A stretch of 64,000 nt of DNA from a virus (lineage: Duplodnaviria; Heunggongvirae; Uroviricota; Caudoviricetes): the IMG/VR virus record IMGVR_UViG_3300021400_000028, positions 42,250-106,249 of that record. One strand, given 5' to 3'. The position numbers and the translations under genes were made by a program. The notes below the pieces were generated by a model. The model was not told where the DNA came from, did no database searches, and worked only from the letters and a program-made list of their open reading frames with translations. Below are positions 34,284 to 58,462 of the stretch, one piece after another (within the stretch, counting starts at the first letter, position 1; each line of letters begins with the position of its first letter).

Positions 34284-36133
34284 TGAAATTGAAAGTATAT
34301 CAGCAAGGGGGTGGGTTAATATACACCCCCTTTATTCCAGCTAGAACAGAAAGTACTATAACTGGAGAATCTAAAGATACCAGTGGAGATGACTCTAAAA
34401 TAAATCCTTTGGATAAAGAAATCTTAGCTTTGATGAAAGATAAAGATTTATTACCAAGCGATATTGAAGCAATTTCTTCTGCCTTGATTAGTTTTCAAAG
34501 GCGTACTCAACATTTAGGAAACCCTGCACTCGGAGGCTCCAGTGATTATCGTTCTGTAATGCCTGGTATGCTTCAAATTATGCAAATGGTTTCTACTGCT
34601 AGATTTAATAGGAAACAATGAGATAATTCTGTTGCAGAAATGCAAAAACACGATGCTGGATCGGAGGTTGCTATGGATTCTTATGGTAAAATGTTCATAA
34701 TTGGAGAGGATGGAAAATTATCTAAAGTTTCTCCAAACGAATATGATAGTACTAAGCATCATGCTATCTCTAATTCAGAATTATTACAATATAGAGAACG
34801 AGTTGCTGGAATGGATGGACAACTTTTAAATGCAATGGATGATCTTGTTGGAAAACAAGATGTTTATAAAGCAATTAATGAAATTATTAAGGCTTATGGT
34901 ACTCAGGATAAAGTTGCATTCCTTACAAAAGATAAAGCAGCTCAAGCAGTGATTCTTGATTTAAATGCTCCAGATGGTGTCTATAATATCAAAGAAACAC
35001 ATACTGCTGCAGATTTACAGACAGCATTTAAAGTTTTGTATGACGAGCTTCCTACTAATATGCAGCATCTTTTAAAGGCAAATGCTGCATTAGCAGGTGA
35101 AGAAAATCCTGAAATTGGTGCATATAAGTTTATTAATAATGTTATAAGTAACAATATTGGTCGTAATTTATCTGCGTCTTTTGATTCTTCTGCAACGAAA
35201 GCTTCTGGTCTTGGCGGAAGTGATGGAAGTGGTGACGACACTAAAAATCTTACAGATTATAATTATATTGAAAATCTTGCAACAGGTAGAAATTTTCAAC
35301 CTCCTGTGTTCACTACATTTAATCCTGGTGGTTCTTCTGTATATATGCATGCTGCAATTCAAAACGTTGGTGCCTTAACTACTGGTGATGGTGTAACACC
35401 TGTCGGTCCAGGGATGGTGGATTCTATCCTAGAATCTATTAAGGGTTTAAAAACAATTTCTCCTCAATATACTGTTACATTTGGAGATCAAATTTTAGAT
35501 GCTTCTGCACAAGGACAATTGTTATATGATGGCTCTGCATTACAGAGAGTAAATCTCCCTTATAAAGAAGTAAATGGAGAAGTTACCGTTGATTGAGAGA
35601 CTGTTGAACAGCTCGAAGAAATCAATAAAAACATTACTGAAAAAGGTGCCACTCCTGGAATGATTCGAGACATGATAGCAGATAACCCTAAATTTGTTTG
35701 GAATTCTGAAACAGGTCAAGTAGAAGCTGTTAATCACATGTGGTTCTTAACGTTTGGTGCTATGGTAGGTCATGATTTCGTAGACGGATTAAATACTAAT
35801 TCTCGTTATATTTCAAGAATGACACAAGACCAAGCAGATTTCTGACATAAACGTTATGAAGAAGCTACAAAGTATGGTTTTGTTAATCACGATAAGAATG
35901 CTCCTATAAGAACAAATGCTCCAACCGATAAAGGTTTTCTCGGCATTGATTGACAGAGAACTAAATATTATCATGGTAATGTTTTCATGCCTATCTTAAA
36001 TGAGATGGCTGGTGCAGTACAATATTATCCTAAAGCAACTCATATGGACAATATGCACACTTATATGGATAATCAAAGAGATTTACAGATACAAAATCAA
36101 GTTCAAACCGGACAAAGAAATTTTAATTGATAA
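34283..36133 (+). CDS. Internal cargo protein, 616 aa (TGA=Trp)
   Basis: MKLKVYQQGGG start; track ORFs 34283, 34640 and 35660 in one frame; ends TGA TAA. Confidence 0.75.
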
Positions 36134-36135
36134 TT

Positions 36136-39100
36136 ATGGCAAATACTGATAAGAAATATGATTGGCTTGCTGCATTAGCTCAAAATCCGGACTTGAGTAT
36201 TGCAGATTTTAAAAAATTAGGTGTTACCCCAGAGAACTCTGATTTTAAAAGCAAATCTGAATATGAAAATAATCCGAAAGTGTTAGAGCTTTTTAAAAAT
36301 TCCGCCGGAGAGTTTGATAAAAAAGCTTTTGAACAATTCTATGATAATGCTCTAATAGCCTACAATAATTATTCTAATGACGAATACTTACCTAAAGCCG
36401 CAGAATTATTTGGTTATTTAGACTCAGAATGGGATAGACCAAGAGGCTCAAAAGTTATGAATACGGCACCAATGTTTGAAGTTGGTCAGAATTCTAGTAA
36501 TTCTTTTGGTATATCCTATATCAATCAGTGAGGCCCTGGGTTTGTGGATCAATCTACTAGAGAAATTGCAGAACAACAGGAAGCTGTTGATTTTGAAACT
36601 GGAAAGGGTTTAGGTTGAACTCCTGATGACAAAGGTGGTTTATTTAAAGGTCTTGTGCGTCCAACATTAGTACTTGCTACATATGATGAAGAAGGTGACT
36701 ATGAAGAAAATGGTGAACTTGTGCATCATTTAAAAGGTGACTTGAAATTACGTAATGGTAAACCATATGCAGAAACTCTTGGCAATCGTAGTTTAAATGG
36801 TAAACAAGTTATTGGTTATGCAGATACCATAACTAGAGAAGGAAGTTGGTTAAATAAATACGATTTTTTTGATTCTGATGGTTTGGATAAAAATCTAGTT
36901 GGAACCATTGTAAAAACAGCTTTTACTGTTGGACCCTATCTTATTCCTGGTGTTGGAGAAGTTCTAGGAGCTATTTCTGCATTTACAGCACTTAATAGAG
37001 TACTTCCTGAATTTGGTAAAGCAATTAATGGTATTGCCGGACAAAGTGAGAATAATGAATTCTCTAAAGCCATGAATGAATGGGCTGGTTGGTTTGCTAA
37101 ATTTGATCCTACTGTTTCTGATTATTCTCAACAACATTTAGTTTCTTTTGAAAATCTCGGTAATCTTATTTCTTCTGTTTCTGGACAATTGTTCCAGCAA
37201 AGAGTTGTAGGAGCCATTCCTAGACTTCTTAATAAAAACGGTAATATTATTAATCAAGCCGACTGAGGTAGAAAACTTGCTTATGGTTACATGGGATTAA
37301 CTTCTGCACAAGGAGCATATGATACCTTTAAAGAAGCTGGCGCAAGTGATATGGTTGCTGGCTGAGCTTTTGTAGCTAATATGCTAGCCCTTACAGGTTT
37401 GATGAATACTGACTACGGAAAAGGTATTCTTTTTAAAGGTTCTTGACTCGATGAAAATGTTATTCGTGAACCTTCTTTACTTGTTGCCAAAGATGTGCTT
37501 AATGGGTTAACAGAAGGAATTGAAAAAGCACCGGTAAAAGAAAAAGCAAAAGCTATTCAGAAGCTTACTAAATTTTATACTGATCACTTGTCTTCTGCAG
37601 CTCCTGAAACATTCATTACCCGTGGTTTATCTGAATCATTAGAAGAAGTTATTGAAGAAGGTGCACTTGATGTTTCTAAGATTTTAGCCTCTGTAGCTCA
37701 ATCTATTGGTATTAACACTGGTAATAAAGAATTAGATTTTGGTTGATCTACTACTGATATTCTCCAGCGCTATGGAATGGCTGCTGCTGGCGGTTTTATT
37801 GGTGGTGGAATATTTTCCCTTCAAAATAAATGAGATAAATTCTTAGCTAATGATTTGGTCCAGCATACTGACGAAGATAATCTACAAAGACTTGCATATT
37901 ATATTTCACAAGGTAGAGGACAAGAAATTCGTGACTATTATGGAAAATGACATAGAAAGGGTTTATTAGGTTCTACAACACTTGGTACAAATCTTACAAC
38001 AGTTGACGGTGTAAACGGTTCTGAAATTGTAGCAGAAGCAGCTACTTCTAATCTTTCACAAAATGATGTTGTTTATAATACACTTATAAAGTATATTGAT
38101 ACTATTGAAGACACAATTAAATCTGAAGGTTTACAAATTGATGTTGGGAGTTTAACAAGAAATGCTATTAATGGATATAAAGAAACACCCTCCGCTTTGC
38201 GAGGCGATACTCTTATCAATCTTGGTATTCACGATTTACTTATAAAGGATGTTTATGATTTAGCTGGTAAAATTGTAAAGGCTAAAGCGGAATTACAAGC
38301 TGAAATTAATAAGCTTACTGTTAAACAAGACAATCCAGATGCTAAGAAAGAAACTGAAGAAAATATTAAAAACAGCGCTAAGATTAAAGAGCTTGAAGAC
38401 AAACTTAATAAACTTAGAGAACGGAGAGACTTAATTCTTTCTGGCCAAAATAACTGATACTATGCTCAACAAGCAATTTTTGTATCAAATACAGAATTAG
38501 CTAAAGGTTTTATTGATTTATCTGTTCAAAACTTTACTCGCGTTAAGTATGGTAAAGTTTACGAAAATCTTTCAGAAGAAGAAAAAGCGGAAATAGATGC
38601 AGACTATGCAGAATACCAAAGAAATGAAGGTAAAAATCAACTTCTTCGTGCTGCTGATGTTTATTTAGGTGCTTCTCAAAGATTTGCAGAAAGACTGAAG
38701 GCAGAAGAACAAAATCTACAAGGTTATACACCCGATGATTTACATAATGTTAATACTGATTTTCAAGAAAACTTTATTAAACTTTTAAAAGAGTATTCTG
38801 AAAGTATTACTCAATTATCTGCTTTACAGACAAAAGCAGATAAAACAGAAGAGGATAATGCTAAAATTGCTGAACTTAAAGATCGTCAAGTTGAACTCGA
38901 AAAACAACTTGGAAGAATTCAACAGCAACCATACACTGCTTTAGTACATCATTCTGATAAATATAAAAGTTTGTTAGATGCGCTTTCTGCACCCGTAATG
39001 ACTCCAGAACTTGAATCGGCGTTATTTTCTGGCATCAAACAAATGTACGAAGATTATCGTACTGATAGGAAACAATTAAATGGTGATGGAGAATTAAACG

Positions 39101-42100
39101 CGGCATTAAATCGTGTAAAACGTGAGTTTTTAAATGCTGCATCTATTGATCAACGTGTAGATAGTTGATTTAGAAATCTTGTAGACCAGTTTACAGACGA
39201 AACTCCTGATGGTGATTTTGATAATTCTCGATGGGGAGAATTCATCGACAGTACATTTGGTGAAGGAAATTATGATATTCTTCCGTTCTATGAGGATGAA
39301 GAAACAGATTTCTTAAAGCATATTAAAGAACTTGCAAAGAGTTTTGTTGACAATCTTGGCATAGATAATATTAAAGCTAGTGCTGAATATGAACAACTTG
39401 TAAGAGAGCTTGATGAATCTGGCATTCCTAAAGAATATATACAATCTTTATTACAAGCTATTGTACCAGAAATCATTTATGATGGAAAACCTACTTCTAT
39501 CATGAATTATCTCACTGAAATAGACAAAATTCGTAAAGATGTAAAATATTCTTCTTTTGAAGACTTACTTCAGGATTTTGCTGTTGATATGTTAGGCGCA
39601 AGAATCAATCTCCTTGATTTAATTAAAGAGCAACGTAATAAACTTTCATGTGTAAATGCTTTATCTGACTATGTTATTAGAAATAATAATATTTCTGCAG
39701 AGCTGGAAAACGCTGAAAAGCTTATCACAATTGTTCAAAGTTTAGTTCGTGGTGCGGTTGATAAAACAAATAGTTCTATTAATGCTTTTAAAGGAAATCC
39801 CATTTCTTTAGCGGAATTAAGTGAAAATGTTGGAAATATTCTTTATCGTCAGTCATTCACTCTATTACGAGAAATTCAGTCTTTGAAAGAACTTGCAAAA
39901 CTTAATGGTTTAAAAATACTTCGAATTCATGAAGATATTGATAAGCATATGAGAGCTTTATATCTTCATACACTTATAAATAATCCTGCATTTGTAGAAG
40001 CTTTTGGAAAAAAATTCTTTATTGAGGATGCTGAAGGAAATGAGACACCAATCGATATTAAAGCAATTGCTGATTCGTTCTTAACAGATTCTATTGATTT
40101 ATCTGCTCCTGATACTATTAATCCTCGTGATTTGATGCAGTTTGAAATTAAATTTGCGACAGAATTATATCACCAGGTTCAGAAATCTACTATTGGAAAG
40201 AATACTGTAGAATTAGCTAAAGCACTTGTTTCTTTATTTGGAAATAATGTATGAAAGATGGAAACAAGCACTCTGTTCACAGATACAGATACTATTTCTC
40301 AATATTCATTAATGTCCTACTTAAAAGTTCTTTTGAGTGTTCCAGCTGAAGATTTTTACAGTAAATATACGGCTGTTACACAAGCAGATGATTCTTCTTT
40401 TGCACCAATTTACAGTCAAGAATTAGGACTTCGGTATATTGCTGCTGCCATTTCTAGACCAGATTTAGATAATGCTATCTTAACAGAACTTAAAGCTCAA
40501 GCAAATTCATATGCTGGAACTTTAACAGATAAAGAGTCTAAGATTTGAATTGAGAATTTAAGTGCTTTACAGAATTTTATTTGTATTCAAGGCGGTGCTG
40601 GAGTTGGTAAGACTCAGGCAATCGCTCGTACAACAGCAAAAATGTACGAAGGATATGATCACGAGTTTATCTGTGTTGCTCCTACTGCTGGACAGGCCGA
40701 AAATCTTGCAAAAGCGGTTGGAGAAAATGTGAGACATACTGACAAAGATACTTTCTTTAAAACGGCACTTGGTACAAAATTTGATAATTATAGTTTCTTA
40801 CATACTACTAGACATTGAACTGCAACAGAAATTCCTGTGCCAAACGATAAAGTTTTTGATGCTTCTAAAAAACTAAAAGTTCTATTTGTAGATGAAATTA
40901 GTTTATTTACAGAATCAGAACTTAAAGCTTTATCTGATTATGCAGTACGTAATGGAATTATTGTTGTTGGCTTAGGGGATCAAACTCAAAATTCTGGTAA
41001 AGTGTATTCAGGAAGTTTTACAGGAGAAGACGGTAAAGTTAATACAATAAAACCGACTTGACATTCTAGTGGTTTAGAAGATTGCTTATACAATGCAGCT
41101 CCTTATTTAACAGCATCTTTACGAAATTCTAATCTTGCAAAATACGAGAATTTCCTTACTTTTACAAAGGAACTTAATAAAGTACAATCTGAATGAAAAA
41201 AGAAACGCGAACTTGCATTTAGTGAATTGGACGCCTTTGTTTCTCCTGAAATTCACATTGACTACTTTGAAAACGAACCTGCTGGAATTTTATATGGTGA
41301 AAAGATTGTTGACTCTTCTGCTGATTTAAAAGCTATTGCAGAAAAATATAGTACTAAAGGCAGAGTTGCAATTATTACTGATAGTTTAGATAAATATCAG
41401 GGATTAAATAAAGATATTAAACTGGTGCCTTATCATGAGATGCAAGGTGGCGAATGAGATTATGTAATAGTTGATGTTAATTTTGAAGAAAATAATACCA
41501 TTGGTACTAATTATAGTAAATATGCTGTATTAAGAGATCTATATACTCTATCCCAGCGTTCTAAAGTTGCTAGTATTATTCGAGATAATGGCATTAAAAA
41601 TAAGTTAGGAATTAAAAATAATAACAATCCTACTTTAAATCAGCCTACAAATCTTAGTGAAGGCGATATTAAAACCTTTAAAACAAGAAGAGGGCAAATT
41701 CTTGATGGATTGACTAGTATAGATAATCTTTACGATTATATTTACGAATTTAAAAAATCGACTCCTAATCCAGTAGCTCCTCCTCCTACACCAACAACAC
41801 CTCCACCTGCTGGAGGTAATCCGGCACCAAAAGGTCAATCTGGTGTACAGCCCGGCACATCTGTACCTTCTGCAGCATCAGCCAATCCTTCAGGTACACC
41901 TACTCCTGTTGGAGCACCAACTGCACAAAGTGGTAGAAGTATAGTAAATAATGCGAGAAAAAAGACTACTGCGAGGATTTTTGCTGGAGAATTTAACGGC
42001 TTCTTAAGGCATCCTGATTTTAGAGAAAATGAAGTTAAAAATCCGACTTCATTGGCAAGTTGAAAAGAAGCTAATTTTAAAGGTGTAAACATTTCTTCTG

Positions 42101-44325
42101 GAACCTATAGGAATCTTATTTCTCATTTAGGATCTTCTATTCGTACAGAAATTCCTATTGGAATTGTTTTGGACCAGTTCTTAAATCAAATTCTTAACGA
42201 TCCTACGAATCAAGATAAAAGAGATTTTACTTATAGAATGATTTCTGAGTTAAAACGTATATTTAATAGTGTTCCTGATATTTATATCTCAGAATATGAT
42301 GCTGAAAAGAAAATTATTACTACTAGATATAAGGTTGATGATTCTACTTATATTGAGATTCCAATTGGATTTGCGAGAACTGCATTGTCTGGACGTTACA
42401 CTGGTAAATTCAAAAGAAATCAAAATCTTAGAATAAGCGATCAAGATCAACAATGAAGACCTCTGGAACAGTTTATTGCAGATTTTCCTGGTGTTGAAGT
42501 TTGTGATGATTGAGGAATTGTTTCTGATACTGTTTCTGGATTTGATAAAGAAACTACTTCCTTTTTACAAGGTAATTCTGGTAAAGTAGCAGTTACATTG
42601 TCCGACGAACCAATGTATGCAAGAACATTCTTTAGAAATTGATTTGAACGTGAACAAATTGGAGAACGTGTGTTATCTGTAAGTCATTACAATGATTTAG
42701 TTGTAGCGATGATTCAAAAACCGGTTGATCCTGTTAAAGTGTTACAATTTGTTAATGCGCTTCATAATAAAGATGCTGATCGTGTTGATATCCAACGTTT
42801 AATGGATAGAGGTTTATGAGAAGATCCTGACAATATTCTTGGAGAGCTTACAGGCAATAATCTAGCAGACTTGCCTACAGGAGAAGAATATTATAAGGTT
42901 CTTAATAGTCGTGCTTGGCAAGTACTTCCTAGAGATAGAGCTGATTTATTTGTATCGAGTGCTTTAGATGTACTTAAAGACACAGAAGATTATAATACTT
43001 TGATGACTAGCCTGACTATATTTATGCACACTATCGGTCTTCCTAATGAACGTATTAATGGAGAACGACATGCTATAGTATTATCTGGTGGGAATAAATC
43101 ATACTGAATTCAAACAGCAGTTAAAGACGGCCATATTACTGGTTATACGGTTAGAGAATATTATCCTAATGGTTCCTTTGGACCAAAAGAATCTGAGCGG
43201 TTCTTTGAGGTAGAAAGATATTTTCCTTATGATAAAATTAAACAGCAATTATTTGGAGGAGCTCAAACACAGATTTCTCTAAAGCGTGCTATTATGAATA
43301 AGGAAAATGTTCCTTCTTATCAGAATTTAACTGCCAATGATACAATTTATACGATATTTAGAGGTGCTAAATTTAATCTTGAACAATTAAGTTCTAGATT
43401 AATGTCCTACGGACCATTCATTAATGGTGTTTATGTAAATGACCCTGGTGGAGACCGTTTCAGTCCTACCTCAGCATACCGTAAATTTATAGGTAATAAA
43501 TCTGGTTATTGGATTAAAGGTGGTATCGAACCTTCAATTTGAAGTATTGATGAAAGTGCTATTCAACCAATTGAAGCTACTGTAGATCCTATGGATAAGG
43601 TTATTAATGATTTTACCAATATCTTTAATAATATTCTTAATATTCTTCCTCTAGAATATCAACAAAAATTCAGAGAGTATTACGACTGAAGTGTACGCGA
43701 AATTCGTAGCGGAAAATATGAAAATGAGAATGAAGTGGTAACAAAGTTAATCAGTTCTATTAATAATGCTATGGCGTTTACACAAAACAGTTGAATTGGT
43801 AAAAAGGTAGTTTGAGCTGGGGATAGATTTGTTCTTGAAGATGTTAATAATATGGCTCTTTGAAGAGACCGTATAATTCATAGTAAATTAAGTACAATTC
43901 CTGGAATTGAATTCACTGAAGATACTGTCGATCAAATTGAAACTATGGAAGACAGGCTTGAGAAATGGAAATACGGAGTATTTGGATTACATGTTCCTAA
44001 TCTTCATGAATCAAACGAAGCTTTCCCTAATGATATACGTCCAATAACATTAATCTATGAGGAGAATGAATGAAAATTGTATAAAATGTCTGTTCCTACA
44101 GCAATAGCTCTAGCTCAGATGTTAGATGCTGTTGATACAATTAATCAAAATCTTCCTTGAGTTCATGAAATCATTCCATATATTAATTCCTTGCAGTTTC
44201 ATTGAACTAATTCTAATAAAGTGAATGCTGTAAAGGCTTCTCAAATAATAAAACAAAATAATCCAGAGCTCTTAAATGCAATTAATGCATATCTAGAGCA
44301 GAGAATTTTAAACGACGAATGTTAA
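36136..44325 (+). CDS. Giant virion protein with SF1 (RecD/UvrD-like) helicase domain, 2729 aa
   Basis: One frame across 14 track fragments. Walker A GGAGVGKT (40591-40614), Walker B LFVDE (about 40882-40896), GLGDQTQ, HEMQGGE-W-DYV, LYTLSQRS; Pro-rich linker about 41760-41940; ends ...LNDEC*. Confidence 0.8.
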
Positions 44326-47300
44326 ATGGCTTGTAATTATTCACCAAAATTTATTTCGCTACTCGCTAGTAAAAGCGAAACAATGTCTGAATTAGACTTT
44401 AAAAATTGAGTAACTACTTACTTTAATGATGGCGAACTTGTTTATACTAGGTTCATGAATGGTGCCCTCTTCAGAGAAGGGGGTACCATTAACCCTAGTG
44501 GTAAACAATCTACCAATTCTAATTGGGGACGATTTACCTACGATCAGGAGGCACATACTTTTGCAGATTACTATCGAGGTGCTGATGATTTAAGGTTAAA
44601 GGCAGAACAAGATTTTAAAACTGAAATTGTTAGAAGATTAATTTTTGATTTTAAAGAAGAAAATCCAGAGTTGAAATGAAAAGATTCTGCTGGATCTGTA
44701 AATGAAGTTATTGCTAAATATAAACAAGAATTAGCAAACGCTCTTTTAAAAGAGTGTGGCAAAGACCCTATTGCATTAACGGAAGACTTATCTAATGATG
44801 AGTATACTAAACGAATTGAAACAGCTCTTACAGAATATAGACAGTTTCTTAGTACTAATCCTGCAACTGTAGAAAATTATGATAAGTTTGTAATTCTTAG
44901 TATTTTTGATACTTTACTTGAATCTTATGCAGATTTTATTTCTCCTAAAAGTGAGTTCATTAATTCTAGAACAAGAAAAGCAATTAAGACCGATGGATTT
45001 AATAAATATGAGTACAAAGGACCTAATGTTCAACACTACACTGGATTTACTTCTTCAGAATTTGCAGCAATTGAAAATCAAGATTCTAATCTAGCAAAAA
45101 TTCTGTTAGATGTAATTCCTGAAATTAATAGCGATAGATCTCCTATTCCAAATTCCTTTATTGGCCTTTCTGGTTTTAATGCTCCAATGACTGCTGTAAA
45201 AAACTGGGTTTTATTTGAAGCTCCAACAGAAATTCGTGATGAATATAATAAAGGTGCTAAAGCAGACATTGGCAAAATCATTGAAGCTTACATTAATTGA
45301 ACTTCTGCTGTTAATAAGGATGTTACCTCTTATTATGATAATCGAAGAACATTCTTAATTTCTAAATTAAGATCTATTCAACACTATTTGTTTAGTGCAA
45401 ATACTGATCCTGCAATTAAAGCCATGTTTGCAGGAATGTTCTTTAAAACTGAAAATGTATCATATCGTGTATATGATTATGATGACAACTTAGGAAGAAT
45501 TGGGGGTCGTAACCTTAAAAGTTCTTTTATCAATTCTCAGAAATTTAGTTTTGAGGACAAAATTAGTGGTGTATCTTACTTGGTTCATACTAATTCTACT
45601 CAAAGAGATAATATTAAAGCTAAATATAAACTCTCTAATATTAGAGGTTCTGTAAGAATTCAGAATATTAATGATCCTGCTGAATACATTGACGTTTGTC
45701 TTTACAAAAAAGATAATGCTGCAGAAGGAACGATTAATGGTAGTTACTCTGATAAATTTATGAAAGATATAATTAAGGACTTCTTAATGTTCGTTCTTCC
45801 AGATACATATGAACAAGTCGGTAGAGCTACTGAAAACGCAGACTGGAAATGAGAACAAGACTTTGCACCTTTCATTGCTTTAATTGCGTACGATGTTAAT
45901 GGACAGACTATTACAGCGGTTAATAGAAAGAAAGGTTCTATTCCTGATTTAAAGCCTTTAAATAAAGCTACTTTACGAGTTGCTCAAAAGTTAAGTACCA
46001 TTTATGGTTCAGAAACAAGAAATGTAGTAAAAAATCCTAGTGGCAACAATCTACCAGTTTATCAACTAACAAATCTTACTTATAATATTCAGTCTGTAAT
46101 CGATAATATTGTAGCTGGTACTAAGTCACTTAGTGGTGTATCCAATCAAAATCTTTTAGTAGAAGCTAGACAACTTCTAATTAGTCCTCAGGTACGTAAT
46201 CAAGTATCTATTAACGGAAGAACAAAAGATGCTTCTTCTTTAACGATTAAAGAGTTACTAGAATTAGGAGTTCTTCATGATTTCTATGGTGCTTTCCTTA
46301 ATAAGGATAGTAATACTGAATACGGTAAGATTTACTTACAATCTGCTACTTATGCTGATAAAGGAACTCATTATCTTGTTGGTTATGATCTAAATAAAAC
46401 AATTACTACTTCTTTTGGAGATATCAATCTATTTGATATTATTCAAGACGTAATTAAAACTGGTGATTCATCTAAACTTTTAGAAATTACTAGACATTTT
46501 AGAGCAAATCGTATTAATGCTGCAGTTGCACATCTCTTAAGTGATTATAATGCTGTTTATAAAGATCAACAGTTTAAAACGCTAGATCAGCTTGACGAAT
46601 TCTTAAAAACTAAAAAATACAAAGATGTTGTTAAGGATTTTGAAACAGCTAATATAAACTTCATTGACGAATTTCATGGTTATAAACCAAGAAATGGGTC
46701 TCTTGGAAACATTAGAGTAAACGAAACTCTTAAATCTCAATATGATACCTTTAATGATCCTAAAAAATTCGAAGATCGAATTAATAAAGCAAGACAAGCA
46801 TTTATTCAAAATATTGATGAGAATCGTTGAAAATGAAATCGTTATGATAGCCCTTTAATTGATCAGATTTACGGTAATAAAGCATATAAGGATTTTCAAG
46901 GTAGTAACGGAGATGTTCTTACTCATATAGGAGACAGATTACATCCTATTCTTGAAGCGTATTTCATGTCTGATGTTCTTCTTTCTAATGAATATAATTC
47001 AATTGCAATTGGTGAAGTTTATTATCACCCTAATAAGAATTCTACATTAACAAACATAGATCCTGACGAAGGTGAAGTTGGTACATATGAAGAATTCTCA
47101 GAAGCAAATCGATTAATTGCTCAGATTAAACGTTCCGTTGCTTTCGGTGCAACATATCATCCTTATATTCAAGGTCTTGATAATGGAGTTACAAGTGATA
47201 TTCAAGTAGCTGTAATGAATGATATTAAAGGTATTGTATTTACACCAAATGGCGACGAGAATGATGAATTAGATTCTAGTGATGGTTCTGGTTTAGCACA

Positions 47301-50300
47301 TCCTCTACAAGCAAGATTTGAAAATAATTCACTTCTTGATGCTAGAGTTGGTATGAACAAGAAGTCAATTATGATGAGTCTTGACCCTCGTACTGGCAAA
47401 CCGACACTTCTTAAATGGGCGGTTTATGCTCTCGATAATGAAGTTCGTAGAAATGGATATTTCGCTAAGGCTTCTACAGAATTACTCTATAAGAAGATGA
47501 GTAGTGGTGAGATTGATACAATTTCTACAAAGGATCTTGATTATTTAATTCGACACTATGAAGGTGGTTTGATGTATAAAGATTTTACTACTGGAATTAC
47601 TTACAGAGTTACTGGTGTTGAAGATACAGAAACTAGTTATAGGCAGCATCGTGTTATCGTTAAATCTGATGGAAGTACTGAAGTAGCAGACGATAAAGTC
47701 TTTACTAAGGGTACCTTATATGATTTAGATCAATTATTTGGTGGTTGTTGGACTGGTAGTTATAAAAATGGACAGTGAATATATAATGAAGCAAATCTTG
47801 ATTTACTTGAAAAGCTTTTTGTGGCTGCTAGAAAAAAAGCTGCAGTTGATACACGATTTACTACAACATTAAACCAATTAGATCGTTCATTTATCGCATA
47901 CGCTGTTAATAAGTCTGCAATTAAAGTTGGTGCAGAAGCAATTAATCCTTCAAAAAGATTCTCTAATGATGAAAAATTAAGAACTTTCACAATGTCTACT
48001 AAATATGGTGGTGTTCAGATGAATGCTGATCATGAACTTGATTTAGCAGAAGTTACTGAAATGACACAGATGATTTCTGCTTTAACAGAAGACGGTCATT
48101 ATAAAGACATTGTTGAAAGTATTTATCAAGATATCGGTGAAACTGTTGCAGCGCATATGGCTAAATTAAATACTGCTGTAGACGATGTTATTAAAACTGG
48201 TACAGAAGAATCTAAACGAGAGCTTTATAAAATACTTGCAGATTCTTGGATTCGTTCTTTTGAGAATTCTAATAAAGATACAATTGGTATCGCACAAGCT
48301 TTTGTAAAGAGAGCGTCTGAAGCGTTTAGAAATGGTAATTTTGATTTTAGAATTCCATTTAGTGCAGCTACTATCAACGGTTCATTTATTTCAGATGTTG
48401 TATCTTCAATTAATCGTGGTGGTATTAGACATAAATATGAAGGTTTTGCTGGAGTTCTTAATCCTTCTCACGATATGATTATGTATTATCGTGTTTTAAA
48501 TGAAAATACTGGTAAATGAGAAACTCGAATGTTTGATCAATTTGCAGATTTTGCTAGAGGCTCTTTTACTCCTGAAACATTCAATGCTCAGACTGTTAAT
48601 TCAGTACTTGTAAACGGACAGCTGAATCCTCTCTGTAAAGAATCCAATTACAACGATATTAGTTTTGAGGATACCGTCGTAATTACAAAAACTACTGCAG
48701 ATGGTCTTGAAGTACTTGTTCACGATATTTATCCTGATGGAGGTGATCCTGATGCTATTTATTTAAATTCTTTTACAGCTTATGATACTGTAAAACGATA
48801 TTTGAGAAACAACGCCGGATGTAAAGTATATATTCATACTGGACGACCTAGAAATCTTGCTGCTGGAAATGTACGATTTAAGGTTGATAATAGATGATAT
48901 TCTATTTATGATTTAGATTCTGTTCGATGCTCTCAGTATTTAACCAAAGCGTTAAATAAAGCTTCTAAAGCTAAATCTGGAAATATTGAACAGTTCTTAT
49001 CTAAGGAACAATTAGCAACCATTAAACAAACTCTCGGTTATAATTATACTCGTTTAATTGCTGATGATAGTAATAGAAATGAAATTTATAATCGAGTGAT
49101 GAGTTTGATTAAGAAACTTAATGCTAAAACAGAAATCACTCTTAAAAATATTGAAAATGGCAATAGAATCGATAACAGTGAAGCGTTTATTACAAGACGT
49201 TTGGAACGGTTAGATATCGATGGCAATGTAATTAATCTAAATTCTTTCCAAGCAGCTCTTGCTTTAATGGGTCCTAAGAAACAAGTTGATACTCAATCGG
49301 CCATTGAACTTATTCAAGAAAATGTAGAGGACGCTACGGATTATAATCCTGTTACACATTCCTCACTAATTGCTAATTGATTAATATCAATTCTTCAAGA
49401 CCCTACAGTACTTTCTGAAGAAACCATACCAATTGGTTTAAATGCAACTGCTAGGCAAAAAGTAGCAGAAGTGCTATACACAAATCAAGAATTTGACAGA
49501 CTTTCTAGAAAACAAAGAGAGTTTCCTGATGAAGTTAAAGTTTCTACTTTAGCGGAAGCATATAATGCTGTTCAAGACGCTTGAACTGATTTATATGATT
49601 ATATTGCAGATGAACATCTTACAGGTTTACATTTTGAACATATTGTTCGTAAAATAGCTAGAAATGAACAAACCGTTCCTTGAGATACTTCTGTTACAAC
49701 TACTGATTATGTAGTAGATGCTCCTGAGATTATAATGGGTAGATATCAAGGAGAAAAATTTGGAATTGGAGAAAATGATCACATTTATCAAATTAGTGAT
49801 TATCACTACTTTGAAGACAAATTATATTCTAAATACAGTCTTCCCGATTATACAGAATCTGAATTATTCGATGCAATTCTTTATGGTAATAACGAACAAT
49901 TCTTAATAAAAATTGGTGAATTACCTGAAGAGTTATCCGGCAGAATCTCTGAAAGCACTGATTTTACTGAAATTGATGGAGACGTCTATTATGAAGGAAC
50001 TAGGATTGGTTCTAATCAAAATAAACGCTTCTTTACATATCTTGATAATACTGGTAATAAACACCACGTCATTCTTGTAAATAATGCTGATACATTCAGA
50101 GAAATTCGTAGATCTGCTTTATTTGATGATGTTATTCGATATAATTGAACGGATGAGAACTTTGATATTCTTAAGAACGTTAAATTTGGAAATAGAGACA
50201 GATTTAGAATTTACTATGACTCTGAACATACAACTGAGGTTTCTCTAGACGAGTTAACGCTTGGAGAGGCTCAAGTTGATGAAACAATCAGACTTGATAA

Positions 50301-53300
50301 GCGTATCAGAAATCAAGCACAAGATATGTATGAGTCTTTTGAAAAACAACTTAACTATGTTGGTGCTCGTATTCCTACTCAAGCTATGCAATCTTTTATG
50401 CCGATGAGAACTATTGCTTGAGTAAACACGTTAACTAATATGGTATACGTCCCTAAGATACAAACGTATCTAGAGGGTAGTGACTACGATATTGATAAAC
50501 TTTACATTCTAGCATATTCGGTTAATAGTAATGGTCTAGTACAAACTGGTTCATCTCTCCAATCTAAATATGGTCTTAGTTTTGTTACAAGTCTGTCAAG
50601 ACCTAATGGGATAACTTATCAAGTTGTAGAATCTCCTGAAGGAGCTTTTACAATTTCAGCTGATACTTTATTGAGATTTAATGAAGATACCCTTTCTAAT
50701 GAAGAAACAGCAGCTCTTTATAATCAAATTTATAAAGAATCTAATGGTAACATTTATTTTGAACCTACAACAACTCTAAATGTTCGTACACGTAATCGTG
50801 TTATTAATAAGATGCTGAATGAGATAAATGGACATGCAGGTTCTGTATTAGAAAGAAATAGTGATCCAAACTATTTAAAAAATAGAATTGTTTCTGCGAT
50901 TTATGATTTAACTACTAAATTACAGAATCAAATGATTGCTCAAATTCCTGTAGATATGGGTGATCCTCAAGAAGCAGCAAAGAATTCTACTCTTGGTAGA
51001 GCAGAAATGCATATCAATTCTGATAATCCTGCTACAAAATTCATGATGCAAGTACAGAATATGATTGGTAAAGAAGTCATTGGTATTTCTGCTGTATCTC
51101 TTAAGGCATTCTTTGGATTATACTATTATTATTCTACATTAAATCAGAATTTAAAAGATGCTTGTACTTATTCAAATCCTGAAACGGATGCTGATACAAT
51201 TATAGAAGCTTTAGATAAATTACTTATTATTCATCCTTTAACTGGTGAAATTACTTCTCTTGCCAATATTGATATTGAACAGGTTCAAGAAATAATTGCC
51301 AATGATAATAGGTTTAGACATCTAAGAGTTAATCCTATTGTTCAACATAAATTTGATGGAAGTAAATGGTATAAAAATGGAGAATTAAATCTTATTGGAT
51401 TCTTAAAAGATTTACAAGTTAGTGTTAATAAAATTGATGCTGCTCTCACTGATAGTGCAGTAATTAGTGCGGCTACTGATAATGCAAAGGAATTAATTCT
51501 TGCAAAAATCAATGCAACACCAGAACTTGTAGATATTTATACTTATTTAACTACTATTGGTACTCCTTTCATGGATATTGCTAATATTATGACCTCTCCT
51601 GCTTTTGGATTTATTTTAAAAGCTGTAGAATCTAATATATTTGATGAAGGTACAGGTAGTTACAAAGCAAAAACGGGTATAGATTGGTTCTTAGATAAGA
51701 AATTACTTCCTGGAGTAGATACTGATTTATTAAAACAATTATTACCTGGTATACCTGAATATTTTGATATTCCAAAATTACTTACGTTAGAGAATATTGA
51801 AAACGCCTTACACCAATTATATGCTTATCTTGAGCATCCTGTTATTTTAGATGATCCTAATGCAGCTGATACTATTAGAGCTCAACTAGATGATCAAGGT
51901 AAATCCGTTAATCGTTTATTTGGCTATGAATATATTCCCAAATTGAATGTTCGAAATGTCATTAAGTACCTCGAATTAGAAAGAGATAAACAAACCTATA
52001 AAGCATCTTTAAGTGAAGATGAAATTAAAAAAATTGAATCTATCTCTGAAATCATCCCCGCAATTGAAGAAATGACAATAATGGGTGGTGCTCAAGGTAT
52101 CAATCAAGGACAACGAACTAATTTATTTGATAATAGAAGTTTTATTAAACGATTAGAAAACTTTATTAATAAAACGGTTGATGCTAAAACTCCTGATGAG
52201 TATAAAAAGAAACCTGATTATAAACCTTCTGATTTTAATTTTAGAACATTTATAGCAGATGAGAATTATAGAATATACTGAATTAATCATTATGATGGAT
52301 TTAAGTATACCTATAATATTCTTGATGCTCTTACAACACTTCCACATTTCTGGGAAATGTTAAAAACTACATATGCTTCAAAGAATGCGATTACTTTATC
52401 TTCGTGAAAGTCAAATGCTATTTGGTCTATGGCTGATATCATTGAAAAAGAATCTTCTGGTAGTTATCTTTCTCAAGACGACTGACGTGCTGGAGAAAGT
52501 TATTTGAACGATTACATGATCACATCTTTCTTGGCCAGTTCTAATATTGAAATTGAAATTCCTGTAGGTGCTAAATATTATAGTGGTTTAGGAATTAAAG
52601 GATTATTAGAGAATAAAGTTAACGGCTATAAGATTAAACTAAATTCTATTTCTAATATTGCTACGTTTAAGAAAATAATGGACGATTATATTATTCCTTC
52701 ATTATTTAGAAATCTTGATTTTGCAGGAAATAAATTTATTGATAATCTTATGCCAATGGCCAGTGTTTCTGGAAATAAAGTTCTTACTGGATGAAAACTT
52801 CCTTTAAATATGATGCTTATCGATGCTTCTCCTAATACGAAACTATTGTGAGCAGATATTATTAACGGCTTTGATCAGATTGCTAATCAGACAGTACCAG
52901 GAGTAAACATGAAGTTAGGTGATTTGTTCTATTTATATAATCTTATTGTAAACAAAGACACCTTTGGGCAATCTTCTTTTACAAGATTATTTGAGAATCA
53001 AGTTAATACAAATAACGAAGAGGCTCTTCCTAATAAATTTAATGAGTTTATTTCTAGGTTGGATAAAGGTGACATTAATTTACCTATTACACCAACTATG
53101 CTTGATGAGATGAAATATAGAATTAAGAAAGCTAATCCTAATTCTAATATTAAATCTCCCATCAGTAAATGACTTGATTTACCTTCTGATTATACTCTGG
53201 ATTTACCTAAATTTTTCCAATTACCTGTTACTAGAGAAAAGGGATATGAAACTGTTCAAGAAACAAGTAGTCATAACATAGGTACTTCTGATACTGATGG

Positions 53301-53967
53301 TTTATTTGCATTAGTTCAAAACTTAGCTCAAATGTATGGTGGTGAAAATCAACCTACCGTAAACCTGATAACAGATGATGATTTAATAGATCTCCCTACA
53401 GCAGCTAAAAATGCAAAAGCCTTTATTTTAGATGGTAATGTTTACTTTAATGTTAATTCTGCTCATATGTCGGATGGTTTACATGAGTTATCTCACCTTG
53501 TATTAGCGGCAATGAAATTCAGTGATAATCCTGAAATTAGACAGCAATATTACACTCTCGTTGGTAAAATGAAAGATCGTAGTATTGTATCAGAAGAGCG
53601 CTTCAATAGCATTGTAGATAAGTATAAGAATGGTGAAGAAGATATTCTCATAACCTCAGATATATTAGAAGAAGTTTTGGCGAATGAGTTTGCTTTCTGG
53701 CTTGAAGGCGAAATTTTCGAAAATAACCCTTTCTTAACAATTGATTCTGAAAAGAATGTACTAAAAGCTATTCAGAACATGTTAAATATCGATAAAGATT
53801 TACAGTTAAAAGATATAGAAGGTAAGACACTAAATGAGATTTTGCAAGCTTTTGGTAAAGAATTACTCAATACTACAGTGGTTGATTCTCAATTTATCTT
53901 ACGTAGTCAAAGAGTTGGTGCTAAGAAAGTACAACTTTATAAGGATGAAAAATTAAAATGTAAATAG
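44326..53967 (+). CDS. Virion RNA polymerase (crAss-type fused beta/beta'-like) with C-terminal zincin motif, 3213 aa
   Basis: GARIPTQAMQSF...EGSDYDIDK with DxDxD catalytic motif at 50482-50496; SSDGSG and NKSAIKVG motifs; HELSH (53482-53496) plus EEVLA; one frame from MACNY to KLKCK* (TAG). Confidence 0.88.
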
Positions 53968-53968
53968 T

Positions 53969-56900
53969 ATGATTTGTGAAAAAGGATATAGTTTAACGCT
54001 TAAAGATGGTTCTATACGTACATTTAATACTGATTTAGAGCTTGATGCTTTCTTAGATGAACAGATAAGATTACATCCTGGTAGTGTCGATACTTCTGAA
54101 TTTCTTACAGAAGCTGTAGACTTTCAAAAAGAACCTGTAAAGATACTTGATGAAATCGCTTCAGCGGTTTCATCAGTATCTAGAAAGGTTGAATCCATGC
54201 CTAATAGTGATGATCCTGAAGATATTGTCTCTTATAATGTTATAGATGGTTCTATTGGCGTAAATCGGTTTCTTCAGAAATTTAAAGTTCCTTCTGAAGA
54301 TGAACTTTTTGTGCAACCTTTTAATAAAGAGGCTTGGAAAATTCGTAGAAAAGAAGCTTTAAAACAGGATTGTATATCTGCTGGAATGTCGATTATTGAA
54401 GCAGAGAAAAAAGCAGAACAGCTTGTTGCTGTAGAAGAAGGTACTTGGGAGAGATACTCTAAAACTGGTGAAGAAGTTCATAAAATTTATGAAATGGTCT
54501 TTAAAGAAGAGGCTTATGAAAGACCATCTGATTCATATCTTTCTGAAGCAATCTTTAATAATGTAAGACAACAAGCAGTTGCATTAAAGCAATCTTTAAA
54601 AGAGAAATATGGTTCAACTGCTAAATTCTATACAGAATTTGGTATTATTTCTAAGACTCTTTCTAATGAAATTATGGACCAGCTTAAACTTGCTGGATAT
54701 GATTCTATTAATGGTAAGATTGACTTACTAGTACTAGATCAGTATGGTAAAGCACACGTATATGACTTTAAAGTATCTCGTAAAGATGTTGGTGATTGGA
54801 AAGGTAATTTCTCCAAAAAACATTGGGATTACGCTAAAAAGAAAGCCGCTGCACAACAATTGGCGTTCTATTCAAAAATTCTTGATCAATATGGTATTGA
54901 TGTTACATCTGCTCATATCGTCCCTATTAAAGTAGATTATACTTTTGAAGACTCTACTCACGAAATTGGTATTAAAAACTTAGTTGACATTGAAAGACAA
55001 CAAGAAATTCTTATTCCTGATGTTCTTTCTGGTAAATGAGCTGAACGTGCTAAAGAAGTTTTTCCAAGTGAGTTCACTTTAACTGGTGATCAAATTACCG
55101 AATGAGCTCGTCAATTTAATCAATTATTTCCTTCACAGTCTGTCATGAAATATCGAGAAAATCACAATCGTGATGTAGACTGGTATTTCAATAATAAAGA
55201 TTATACACAAGAGATTCTTCCTAGTGATTCTCGTTACGCAGATGGGTATCGTTTTACTTTTTGGAAGAAAGGAACTAATCGTAAAGTCGCAAAAGCTAAA
55301 ACAGAAGAAGACCTTCGTGGCATTATTGAAGAATATATTGAAGCTCTGTCATCGAAACGTTCTGATACCTGTATAGACGTTGCTAATAGAATTAAAAGTG
55401 TTCAACAAGGAAATCTTACTCTTGATGCTTTTGCTGATTTTGTACCTGCTACACAAACTGAGTGAGTAAAAACTCAATTTAAACGCTATTTTGATGAGCA
55501 TTGAACTTTTAATGAAGATGAAACATTAAATGCAAACGGAATCTTTATTTTTGAAAAAGGTGGTGTTTGTGAGATTGTTTCTATTTCTGAAAACCCTTTG
55601 TTTAATGTTATCAATCTTGGTATAGGAACTTCTATTTTAGGAGCTACTACAAGAGACATGAATGTGAATAAAGTTAAAACTTTTGAAGCTTCATATGGTA
55701 ACATCGGTCTTATGGAAGTCATGCTATATGTAGCACAAAATCAAGATAAATTTAGAACGAGAAAAATTCAACAAGTTAGGGTTATAAATCCTTCTCAAAA
55801 CCAGGAAGTTTCTGCACTAAACTCTGAATTGCTTGATAACTATGCACAACTAAAACAAAAAAATCCTACAGTTGGTTTAATTGATATTGATTCAAATGTT
55901 TTTGTAGAAGATGTTAAAGCTCTTATTGAAGGTGCTAAATCTCGTATGATGTCAATTGATCCTGACGTTTTAGGTCAAATAAAAATTAGTGATAGTGAAG
56001 AAATCTCTGATTATTTAAATAACTGTATGAGTGCTTTAAAAAGAGCTTATTCTAATTTAAATAATTGAGCTGATGACAGTAAAATTTCTATGGGAAATCC
56101 TGTCTGGCAAGCTTATATGTTTTTAAGACAAGCATATAATTCTTTAAAAGGTGTTTCTAGTCATACTGAAAAAGACAAAGGTGCATACTGGCAAAAAGGT
56201 TCTGGACCAAATGGTACTATGATTTCTTCGTTGCAATACTCTCCTTCAACTAACTTACGAGAACTTGGCAAAATTGTTGATGAATTCTCAGCAGAAGTAA
56301 GTAAGCGCTGTTATGAAAGAGGTTGAAAAGCACAACAAGCTTTTAAAAAATTATATAATGCTCGTGGTAATGGAACAGAAGTTTTTAGAAGTTGATTCAG
56401 AACGGATTCTTCTGGTAAAATTGATGAACGTCTTCTTTTACTTGACCCTAATTCACCTGATTTTAAAGGTTCTCCTGCTGACAAAGAAGCTCTTACTATT
56501 TTCTTGGAAGAAATAAATAAATTAAGATTTCCTAGTGATAACGAGGCTGACATTGAAGCTAGAAAAGCATCTCTTCAGTATTATGAATTACCTTTAACTG
56601 AAGCAAAAACAGTTGGACAATTAAAAAACGGAGTTAATATTGTTACTGTTGCAAAGAATAAATGACAACAATTTACAACCCTTACTAAAGATGTATTTGC
56701 TGAAGATGAAGAAGATGTTCTTGAACATAATAGTTTAGGTCAACAATTGTACAACAAGTTTGATTTAACTTCTGGTGCAAGAAGACAAAAAATTGAAAAT
56801 CATGGAGGTATAGGATATTTTGATTTAAATTGTGAACGTGTTTTCAACCAAGTTCTCTTAGCTTATACTAAATCTGAAGTATCTAAAGATTTTCTACCTC

Positions 56901-58462
56901 TTGTAGAAGGTTTGCGATTAGGAATTGCATACCGTAGTTCTTACGGTGGAGCGGAAACCGATGACCTTTTAAAGACTTTTGATAAAGCTGTAAAAAGTAA
57001 ATTCTACGGACAATCTATTATTCCTAAAGAGTATCAAGGAATTTACAAATATTTTAGCTTTATAAGAAATGTTTTTACTAGAATGGCACTATCTTTAAAC
57101 TTTACATCCTTCTTTAGAGAAACTCTTCAAGGTATTTATACTGGACTTTCTAGAGCAGGCGTAAAAATGCTTCCTGGTGTAGATGAGAAAAATTACATTA
57201 AAGCCCTTGAATATGTGATTAAAGAATCTCCTAAGAACTTTGAGGGAGTGTCAAAACTACAACAGTTAAATATTCTTTATAAAATGGCTAATCAATCTAT
57301 GAGTCAAATTGCTAATGGGCGTAAGTTAAATTGAATGAATATCAATAACTGAAGCTCTGATACATTGTTCTTGACTGCTACTGCTCCAGATTTCTTGCAT
57401 CGAGTTTCCATTCTTGTTGCTAAAATGATGGGAGATGGGTGTTGAGATGCACATAGTTTAGATGCTGAAGGTAAACTAGTTTATGACTTCAAAAAAGACA
57501 AACGTTTTGAACATTATATTGCTAACGATACTTCTCACAAAGACTATTTAAAAGAAAAGTCTCTTTATCTTAAGATGATTGATGAGTTTAATAAGCAAGG
57601 ATATAATCTAGAAGAAGGAGATAATCTTCCTCAAGCTTACACTCAAATAGAAGCGTCTTCTATTAAAAACTTCGGTGATTTACTTTATGGACATTATGAT
57701 GAAGAATCTAAATCTTTATTCTGTGATACCTTTATAGGAACATTCTTTATGCAATATAAAACCTTCTTAACTTCTAAGCTAGAGATGTGAACAATGCCCC
57801 AAGGTGTTCACAATACGGAATTACTTACTCAACAATTTGATCCTGAAACACATGAAGAACTTTATCAGGTAATTGAATGGGATGAAGATAGACGTCCTCA
57901 TAGAAATATTGTAAAAAAATCGGATTTAACCGAAGAACAAGCTAAAACTGCTACATTGTATTATGACTACGAAGGTATTCCTTTAAATGGTCTATTACAG
58001 GAGAGTTGGAGATTCTTGAAAGATATTGGCACAATGAATCAGGAAGACTTAAATGAACTTTGGAAAGATCCAACTCATAGAGGCCTCTTAATGCTAGCTC
58101 TTCACGATCAATTTGTAATGATGTTAATGACCTTATTGGTGACATTCTTAACAGGTACAATGGCAGATGTAAATGAGCCCTTAAACGAATCTAAAGTTCG
58201 TAATGCAGTACGTAATATGGGACCTGTAGAACAGTTAACTTATAATGTTGTTTGAGGTTCATTACAAGATTCTCAATTTCATAATATACTTGGTAACTTT
58301 GCACAGAACCCACCTATGGTAACGCAAGTAAGTAAGTTCTTAAAATCTAGTTGGCAAGTTATTGCTGGAGATCATGAGTTACCTTATGCTTTAACACAAA
58401 ATGTTGGTATGATTCGTAATTTCCAAGGTATTGCTTTAAACGCTGAAAAACTAGCAGAATAA
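53969..58462 (+). CDS. Giant virion protein with PD-(D/E)xK (RecB/Cas4-like) nuclease domain, 1497 aa
   Basis: GEEVH...TEFG...GKIDLL...YDFKVS...QQLAFY motif series (DFK 54764-54772); seven track fragments in one frame; TAA 58460-58462. Confidence 0.78.

Follow-up and report, generated by a model that had tools for sequence, protein, structure and literature searches.

In the crassviruses phi14:2 and crAss001, three giant proteins are encoded after the tail and cargo genes (g067-g066-g065 and gp47-gp50-gp49, respectively), and the proteins of both blocks have been detected in virions by mass spectrometry. How such cargo is packed and injected is a question raised both in the crAss001 atlas (PMC10172136) and in a 2026 study of phage N4, which describes the crassvirus ejection proteins as still to be resolved and asks how the three crassvirus proteins relate to the three parts of the N4 RNA polymerase (RNAP) (PMC13434306). 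Here we describe what is most likely the corresponding block of another crAss-like gut phage, encoded in a stretch of 64,000 nucleotides (nt) of IMG/VR record IMGVR_UViG_3300021400_000028 (positions 42,250 to 106,249; hereafter, the window). Its three consecutive giant proteins, A, B and C, carry a cysteine (Cys) at each of the four ends that face one another and at neither of the two outer ends. The phi14:2 and crAss001 blocks have an identical 1-2-1 pattern of terminal Cys, although the window proteins are larger (7439 amino acids (aa) in total versus 5398 in phi14:2 and 6102 in crAss001), need TGA to be read as tryptophan and keep 20 interior Cys. We consider it probable that A, B and C are tied head-to-tail through their terminal Cys, most likely by disulfides, which would serve co-packaging and ordered ejection.

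The region between 36 and 58.5 kb of the window, which belongs to a complete phage genome of 170,249 bp with terminal repeats, is open as three abutting plus-strand giant genes only when TGA encodes tryptophan (translation table 4); read with table 11 or with TAG as glutamine, it breaks into a series of short open reading frames (ORFs). Genes A, B and C together contain 63 in-frame TGA codons, and their own stops are TAA, TAG and TAA. The Cys at the facing ends are the last residue of A, the third and the penultimate residues of B and the third residue of C, and the N-terminus of A and the C-terminus of C have none (Table 1). The three proteins contain 6, 9 and 9 Cys (0.22, 0.28 and 0.60 %), that is, 24 in the block versus 65 expected, with 0.88 % Cys in the other ORFs of the window. 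None of the remaining window genes has a Cys among its first or last few residues. At the interior Cys frequency of 0.27 %, the chance of finding Cys at all four facing ends is 8e-10 for the observed positions and 7e-7 if any position within 12 residues of the facing ends is allowed. The earlier note on this DNA had given the positions of the genes, the TAA-ATG abutment, a total of about 7400 aa, the Cys-free outer ends and the scarcity of Cys, all of which proved correct. The terminal Cys pattern is real and far beyond chance.

The labels of helicase, RNAP and nuclease that the same note had attached to A, B and C are also reasonable. A contains a helicase-like P-loop domain with matches to AAA_30 (Table 1) and to PHROG 325, a Dda-like helicase, at 3e-10, and PF12705, of the PD-(D/E)XK nuclease family, is found in many homologues of C. 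For B, a profile of 31 homologues aligned with residues 1061–1661 of phi14:2 gp66 (hhalign probability 97 %, E-value 8e-11) over a span around the GSDFDIDK motif of gp66, and R..P.Q..QS and GSDxDxDK are invariant among the 31 homologues. The profile match identifies B as a predicted virion RNAP homologue sharing the two-barrel catalytic core of gp66. Searches of PDB with B using phmmer and profiles returned no match, nor did tblastn of B residues 1–600 against GenBank phages; residues 1–600 of C gave two weak matches in the latter search, and in IMG/VR scans B had a single 95 % relative and C had none. An AlphaFold2 (AF2) model of the first 350 aa of a B homologue, with a predicted local distance difference test score (pLDDT) of 83.5, found nothing in PDB at E <= 0.001 with Foldseek. 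Overall, A, B and C most likely represent the version that this crAss-like gut phage has of the RNAP-associated cargo block of Crassvirales, which is packed and injected; by homology and position, the window proteins would likewise be present in the virion and ejected from it.

Protein searches returned 108 homologues of B, 62 of A and 76 of C, down to about 23-25 % identity. Among sequences of at least 85 % of full length, a Cys lies within the last 12 residues in all 61 A homologues and within the first 12 in none of them. In B homologues it is found in the first 12 residues in 85 of 87 and in the last 12 in 87 of 87, and in C homologues in the first 12 in 73 of 76 and in the last 12 in a single one of 76; by chance, such a terminal Cys would be expected in about 2-4 % of the sequences. 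Of the five N-terminal exceptions (two B and three C), four are truncated ORF calls that start 16-98 residues inside their nearest relatives; the fifth, P0214, is an over-extended call whose Cys is found at position 13, following an internal Met. The lone C homologue with a C-terminal Cys is a truncated ORF as well. Judged from these sequences, all complete homologues keep the pattern and the apparent exceptions are miscalled ORFs. Conservation in orthologues, on which the earlier note had made its proposal hinge, is thus what we find, with the four positions kept in all complete homologues across at least three Crassvirales families.

The terminal Cys also stands out in alignments. Over the final 350 aa of 29 aligned A homologues, just two columns are invariant, and the terminal Cys is one of them; across 57 B homologues, the invariant columns include M1 and C3. 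In several A homologues of 2600-2900 aa and in one C homologue, the terminal Cys is the only Cys of the protein. Its exact position varies, being 3-10 in the downstream protein and 1-10 from the end of the upstream protein. The N-terminal junction Cys is usually followed by an aromatic residue at +2 (C-x-aromatic), and the residue before the C-terminal Cys of A is usually Glu (about half of the distinct A tails), which hints at specific docking of the tails. Some B homologues are longer and have extra domains, namely P0059 (4456 aa; AAA_30/AAA_19 and PF08902) and P0062 (3874 aa; PF08719 and PF08902), and these too keep the N- and C-terminal Cys.

Distant crassviruses display the same rule. In 16 annotated reference genomes, representing Steigviridae, Suoliviridae and Intestiviridae, and in two unclassified phage records, Cys is present within 12 residues of every facing end and absent from the outer ends. 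In phi14:2, the only Cys of g067 (1797 aa) is its last residue, the RNAP g066 (2180 aa) contains just two, Cys3 and Cys2179, and Cys3 is the sole one of g065 (1421 aa), so that the 5398 aa of the block contain four Cys, all at facing ends, where some 41 would be expected. In crAss001, gp47 has only Cys2339 of 2341 residues, gp49 has only Cys5, and gp50 (2412 aa) has Cys5, Cys1334 and Cys2404, giving five Cys in 6102 aa versus 77 expected. DAC15, cr111, cr126 and IAS virus share this terminal Cys pattern. The order of the block, which comprises two to four giant genes, runs from the A-like protein through the RNAP to the C-like protein and is common to the window, to a related 51.9-kb contig that also reads TGA as tryptophan and to the reference genomes. 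Relatives use the standard code (MT835470), TAG as glutamine (MT835492, Suoliviridae) or TGA as tryptophan (a Logan contig), and the Cys rule therefore holds across three genetic codes.

These comparisons bear on the simplest alternative, namely, that the terminal Cys reflect chance, composition or a nucleotide constraint at the stop and start codons. The window genes do abut (TAA-ATG and TAG-T-ATG), and a local RNA signal was conceivable there. However, the window by itself already gives a chance of at most 7e-7, and the pattern is kept down to undetectable sequence identity, with the position of the Cys varying from 3 to 10. Moreover, it persists in crAss001, DAC15 and IAS virus, where gene A is on the strand opposite to B and C, and in MT835470 and MT835492, where B and C are separated by a gap of about 2.3-2.4 kb (L006:24258-26674 and L007:23480-25813, respectively). 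With A on the opposite strand and more than 2 kb between B and C, a nucleotide-level signal at abutting genes cannot be the cause. The comparative data refute this explanation, to which we assign a negligible probability.

The partners of the individual ends emerge from lineages in which the cargo genes have been fused or split. In the Suoliviridae cr114, cr113 and cr272, A and B are fused into one protein of 4272-6386 aa, which is accompanied by a C-type protein, and just two terminal Cys remain, one at the C-terminus of the fusion and one at the N-terminus of C. In cr114 and cr113, the catalytic motif lies 3220-3240 residues from the N-terminus, versus 1359-2051 in separate B proteins, and the first ~2000 residues, a span covering any plausible A-B junction, are free of Cys. 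An independent A-B fusion in cr108 (Steigviridae) retains the same two terminal Cys; one interior Cys (1534) lies about 50 residues from the approximately mapped junction, but no pair is found there. In Intestiviridae, B and C are fused instead (Rudgehvirus jaberico, cr107_1 and crAss002). These proteins of 4098-4245 aa start with MAC or MSC and have neither a C-terminal Cys nor a Cys near the inferred junction, whereas A keeps its near-terminal Cys; only the pair formed by the C-end of A and the N-end of B is retained. The converse event, a fission, is seen in MT835492, in which four proteins of 1540, 1555, 3401 and 1551 aa are encoded. The first two align to the N- and C-terminal halves of unsplit A homologues, and the new ends created by the split read ..EACKVIA and MQSNC.., although unsplit A homologues have no Cys at the exact split site.

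Across these genome comparisons, the junction Cys are lost together on fusion and gained together on fission. Such joint loss and gain assigns the C-end of A to the N-end of B, and the C-end of B to the N-end of C. The head-to-tail pairing proposed in the earlier note thus gains strong support from relatives, as the pairs persist when the genes are far apart or on opposite strands, vanish at fusions and appear at a new split. Other arrangements fare poorly. A single node of four Cys joining all the ends is impossible in the two-protein systems, and a cyclic B combined with an A-C pair is contradicted by which Cys are lost on fusion.

Alternatively, each terminal Cys could bind the same end of a second copy, giving rise to dimers or to polymers, or it could bind a capsid, portal or adaptor protein or some other third partner. 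Each cargo protein is believed to be present in the virion in several copies (PMC10172136), and one Intestiviridae cargo protein has a single Cys near its C-terminus for which no heterotypic partner is obvious. We nevertheless regard this possibility as improbable, since it predicts neither the Cys-free outer ends nor the joint loss on fusion and joint gain at the split; the latter excludes homotypic pairing as a general explanation. The Intestiviridae protein in question is encoded two genes upstream of A (crAss002 gp30, L015:547-2220; cr107 gp38, L017:2508-4886; Rudgehvirus, L016:2782-5055), and its single Cys is part of a conserved [RK]-C-G-G motif located 8-11 residues from the C-terminus. 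Its counterparts in the window have no Cys.

The Cys could also mark the ends without tying them, either as a signal for recognition or processing by a protease or packaging factor or as a redox switch of activity after injection. The sequence context extends beyond the Cys itself, with C-x-aromatic at the N-terminal sites and E-C at the end of A, and gp66 was crystallised in an auto-inhibited state that needs activation (preprint 10.1101/2020.03.07.982082). However, a signal acting on each protein should occur at the outer ends too and should not be lost on the two sides of a junction when genes fuse; in addition, recombinant gp66 needs no partners for activity (same preprint). We consider such a marking role just as doubtful as binding to a second copy or a third partner. 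Two more specific functions of a terminal Cys can be dismissed. A, B and C have no Pfam intein or Hint match and their Cys are not at splicing positions, which argues against split inteins, and with Cys at residues 3-10 there is no room for the signal peptide of a bacterial lipoprotein.

Head-to-tail pairing does not by itself define the chemistry of the joint. The same ends might be held through a shared metal ion (Zn, Fe or Cu) or another cross-link, the clasp opening on ejection. The pairing logic is independent of chemistry, a metal clasp would form in the reducing cytoplasm, and about half of the distinct A tails have Glu before the terminal Cys. On the other hand, the four ends lack a conserved His, a second conserved Cys or a fixed acidic ligand in their vicinity, a Zn site made of just two thiolates is poor, and in two-protein systems the terminal Cys number two in total. 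A zinc clasp or zinc hook built from four conserved ligands, such as CxxC from each partner, is rejected outright, as there is one conserved Cys per end. A metal or other non-disulfide joint is therefore an unlikely option, if somewhat less so than the two preceding alternatives. By contrast, the conservation of a single residue at each end, unaccompanied by a His or another Cys, favours a disulfide. Many inter-subunit disulfides were resolved by electron cryo-microscopy (cryo-EM) in the purified crAss001 virion (PMC10172136), indicating that such chemistry occurs in crassvirus virions as purified. Furthermore, recombinant gp66 transcribes in dithiothreitol (DTT) (10.1101/2020.03.07.982082), suggesting that its Cys reside on free tails and are not needed for catalysis.

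With disulfides as the joints, a mechanism can be outlined. A, B and C would travel in the capsid and be injected before the DNA or along with it, each facing end presenting one reactive Cys on a short tail. Cys3 of B would bond to the C-terminal Cys of A, and Cys3 of C to the Cys next to the end of B, the bonds forming once the proteins adjoin in the particle, out of reach of thioredoxin. The product would be a linear thread of ~7400 residues, a post-translational 'polyprotein' in which disulfides replace the peptide bond of the fused relatives and overhangs of 0-11 residues keep the joints slim. Such a thread would ensure fixed 1:1:1 co-packaging of A, B and C and their transit through the tail in order, with each one drawing in its successor, and on arrival the host thioredoxin system would reduce the links, freeing the active RNAP. 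The cargo has to traverse the tail constrictions partly unfolded (PMC10172136), and a linear chain with short overhangs fits this passage; the purge of interior Cys fits the need to avoid wrong cross-links. For Crassvirales in general, we see about an even chance that the cargo forms a covalent thread of 5,000-9,000 residues joined by heterotypic terminal disulfides, threaded link by link and unzipped by thioredoxin.

Several observations weigh against disulfide-linked ejection or limit the evidence for it. The purge of interior Cys is weaker in the window lineage than in phi14:2 or crAss001. In the AF2 model of the B homologue, Cys3 is found in an extended segment (pLDDT about 81) that precedes a helix formed by residues 7-20, and the N-terminal tail of B may thus not be fully free in the window lineage. 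The complete 170,249-bp genome yielded neither a thioredoxin nor a glutaredoxin; no Erv1/ALR thiol oxidase was found either, although the Erv1 control matched nowhere and that search is uninformative. The reducing cytoplasm at assembly and hosts that are mostly gut anaerobes put the formation and timing of a disulfide in question, and the crAss001 virion disulfides could have formed during aerobic purification. The fusion junctions were placed only approximately, by the distance to the catalytic motif, and the literature searched on crassvirus cargo yielded no biochemical evidence of a link between A and B or between B and C. A complex prediction for the last 350 aa of A homologue P0116 and the first 350 aa of B homologue P0006 gave a score of 0.00, the two proteins, from the same contig, being folded without alignments and the partner fold being uncertain; this score counts neither for nor against binding.

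The coordinates of the block and of its neighbours are collected in Table 1. Two Cys-free ORFs that precede gene A are outside the Cys chain and have no family match; their position alone makes them candidate equivalents of the crAss001 cargo proteins gp45 and gp46. The related 51.9-kb contig has the same gene order, with proteins of 1674 and 614 aa followed by A, B and C, and a PHROGs search of the upstream virion genes of the window gave a single generic match only. The A homologues of the window lineage (P0112-P0173) share the conserved motif N-D-W-[FLI]-[AV] in their first 12 residues (36136-36180 in the window), which is not seen in Steigviridae A proteins. Since it is located at the free leading end of the proposed chain, the motif may be a packaging or leader signal.

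Table 1. Positions in the window of the giant genes, their junctions and domains, and the ORFs upstream of them
Feature	Position	Strand	Details
Two upstream ORFs	29160..36133	+	1707 aa and 616 aa; 0 Cys; outside the Cys chain
Gene A	36136-44325	+	2729 aa; start MANTDKK, end ..LNDEC; Cys TGT 44320-44322, TAA 44323-44325
Helicase-like P-loop domain of A (aa 1471-1620)	40546..40995	+	Pfam AAA_30 4.5e-13, AAA_19 5e-8
A/B junction	44320..44334	+	TGT (Cys2729 of A), TAA, ATG, GCT, TGT (Cys3 of B); read directly
Gene B	44326-53967	+	3213 aa; start MAC (Cys3 TGT 44332-44334), end ..KLKCK; TAG 53965-53967
Catalytic GSDYDIDK (DxDxD) motif of B (aa 2051-2058)	50476..50499	+	G-S-D-x-D-x-D-K invariant in 31 homologues
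Penultimate Cys3212 of B	53959-53961	+	TGT; sequence read directly
B/C junction	53959..53977	+	TGT (Cys3212 of B), AAA, TAG, one base, ATG, ATT, TGT (Cys3 of C)
Gene C	53969-58462	+	1497 aa; start MIC (Cys3 TGT 53975-53977), end ..EKLAE

Some of the gene models compared here appear to be disrupted or misannotated. In several lineages, the ORF of B ends right after ..LQGS, within the GSDxDxD motif, and resumes some 290-1060 nt later (P0076-P0083, P0091, P0035, P0111; L006:20246-21307; L013:17122-17413); in cr108, gp053 starts after the interruption with LYDIDK.... Located in the codons of the catalytic site, the interruption looks like an inserted intron, and ORF callers consequently report polymerases of half length. 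B of IAS virus is annotated as two overlapping ORFs (gp055/gp056, L009:11019-20001) with ambiguous bases at the joint, and the downstream piece has no N-terminal Cys; this division is most likely an assembly or frameshift artefact and not a true split. In crAss002, the annotated start of gp33 (L015:11242-11340) is probably 32 codons too far upstream, as Met33 gives MSC.., which equals the annotated start of cr107_1 and matches that of Rudgehvirus jaberico. If the proposed chain exists, the Cys rule would be of use in annotation, both for finding true start codons and for telling real gene splits from introns and frameshifts.

The crAss001 atlas (PMC10172136), the preprint on the phi14:2 RNAP and the N4 paper (PMC13434306) mention neither the terminal Cys nor a link between the proteins, and full-text searches of the literature turned up nothing relevant on cysteines or disulfides of crassvirus cargo, which suggests that an end-to-end Cys tie of crassvirus cargo is undescribed in the literature searched. 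At stake is the packing and injection of about 700 kDa or more of RNAP-associated protein. If true, the tie would be the first such mechanism for phage ejection proteins, in the most abundant group of human gut phages. It would account for the free fusion and splitting of cargo genes in evolution, for huge proteins that are nearly Cys-free, and for the maintained stoichiometry and order of ejection, and thiol chemistry would become a handle to block infection or to load foreign cargo.

Among known systems, a close parallel to the proposed chain is provided by the fused cargo of the crassviruses themselves. The A-B proteins of Suoliviridae (4272-6386 aa) and the B-C proteins of Intestiviridae (about 4100-4250 aa) have the same domains in the same order, with a peptide bond at the joint and no junction Cys; a chain tied through terminal Cys would reproduce this fused topology. 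Crassvirus polyproteins have been assumed, but only assumed, to be cleaved (Drobysheva et al. preprint). The disulfides of the crAss001 virion (the gp57 dimer, the tail hub to the ring proteins, and R1-R2) are also intermolecular and connect separately encoded proteins, although they brace the fixed shell and tail (PMC10172136), whereas the bonds proposed here, predicted from sequence, would join mobile cargo. The virion RNAP of N4-type phages resembles crassvirus cargo as a giant polymerase-bearing thread ejected from a podovirus-like particle, but it is the product of a single gene (~3500 aa, comprising an N-terminal domain, a core and a C-terminal domain), has an unrelated RNAP fold and displays no terminal-Cys logic. 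In AB toxins, such as diphtheria toxin and the clostridial neurotoxins, an unfolded chain crosses the membrane while tethered by a single disulfide and is freed by cytosolic thioredoxin; however, the two chains derive from one precursor, the targets are eukaryotic, and there is no ordered chain of three or four proteins. Finally, split inteins likewise re-join the products of split genes after translation, but the Cys joint proposed for A, B and C would be reversible.

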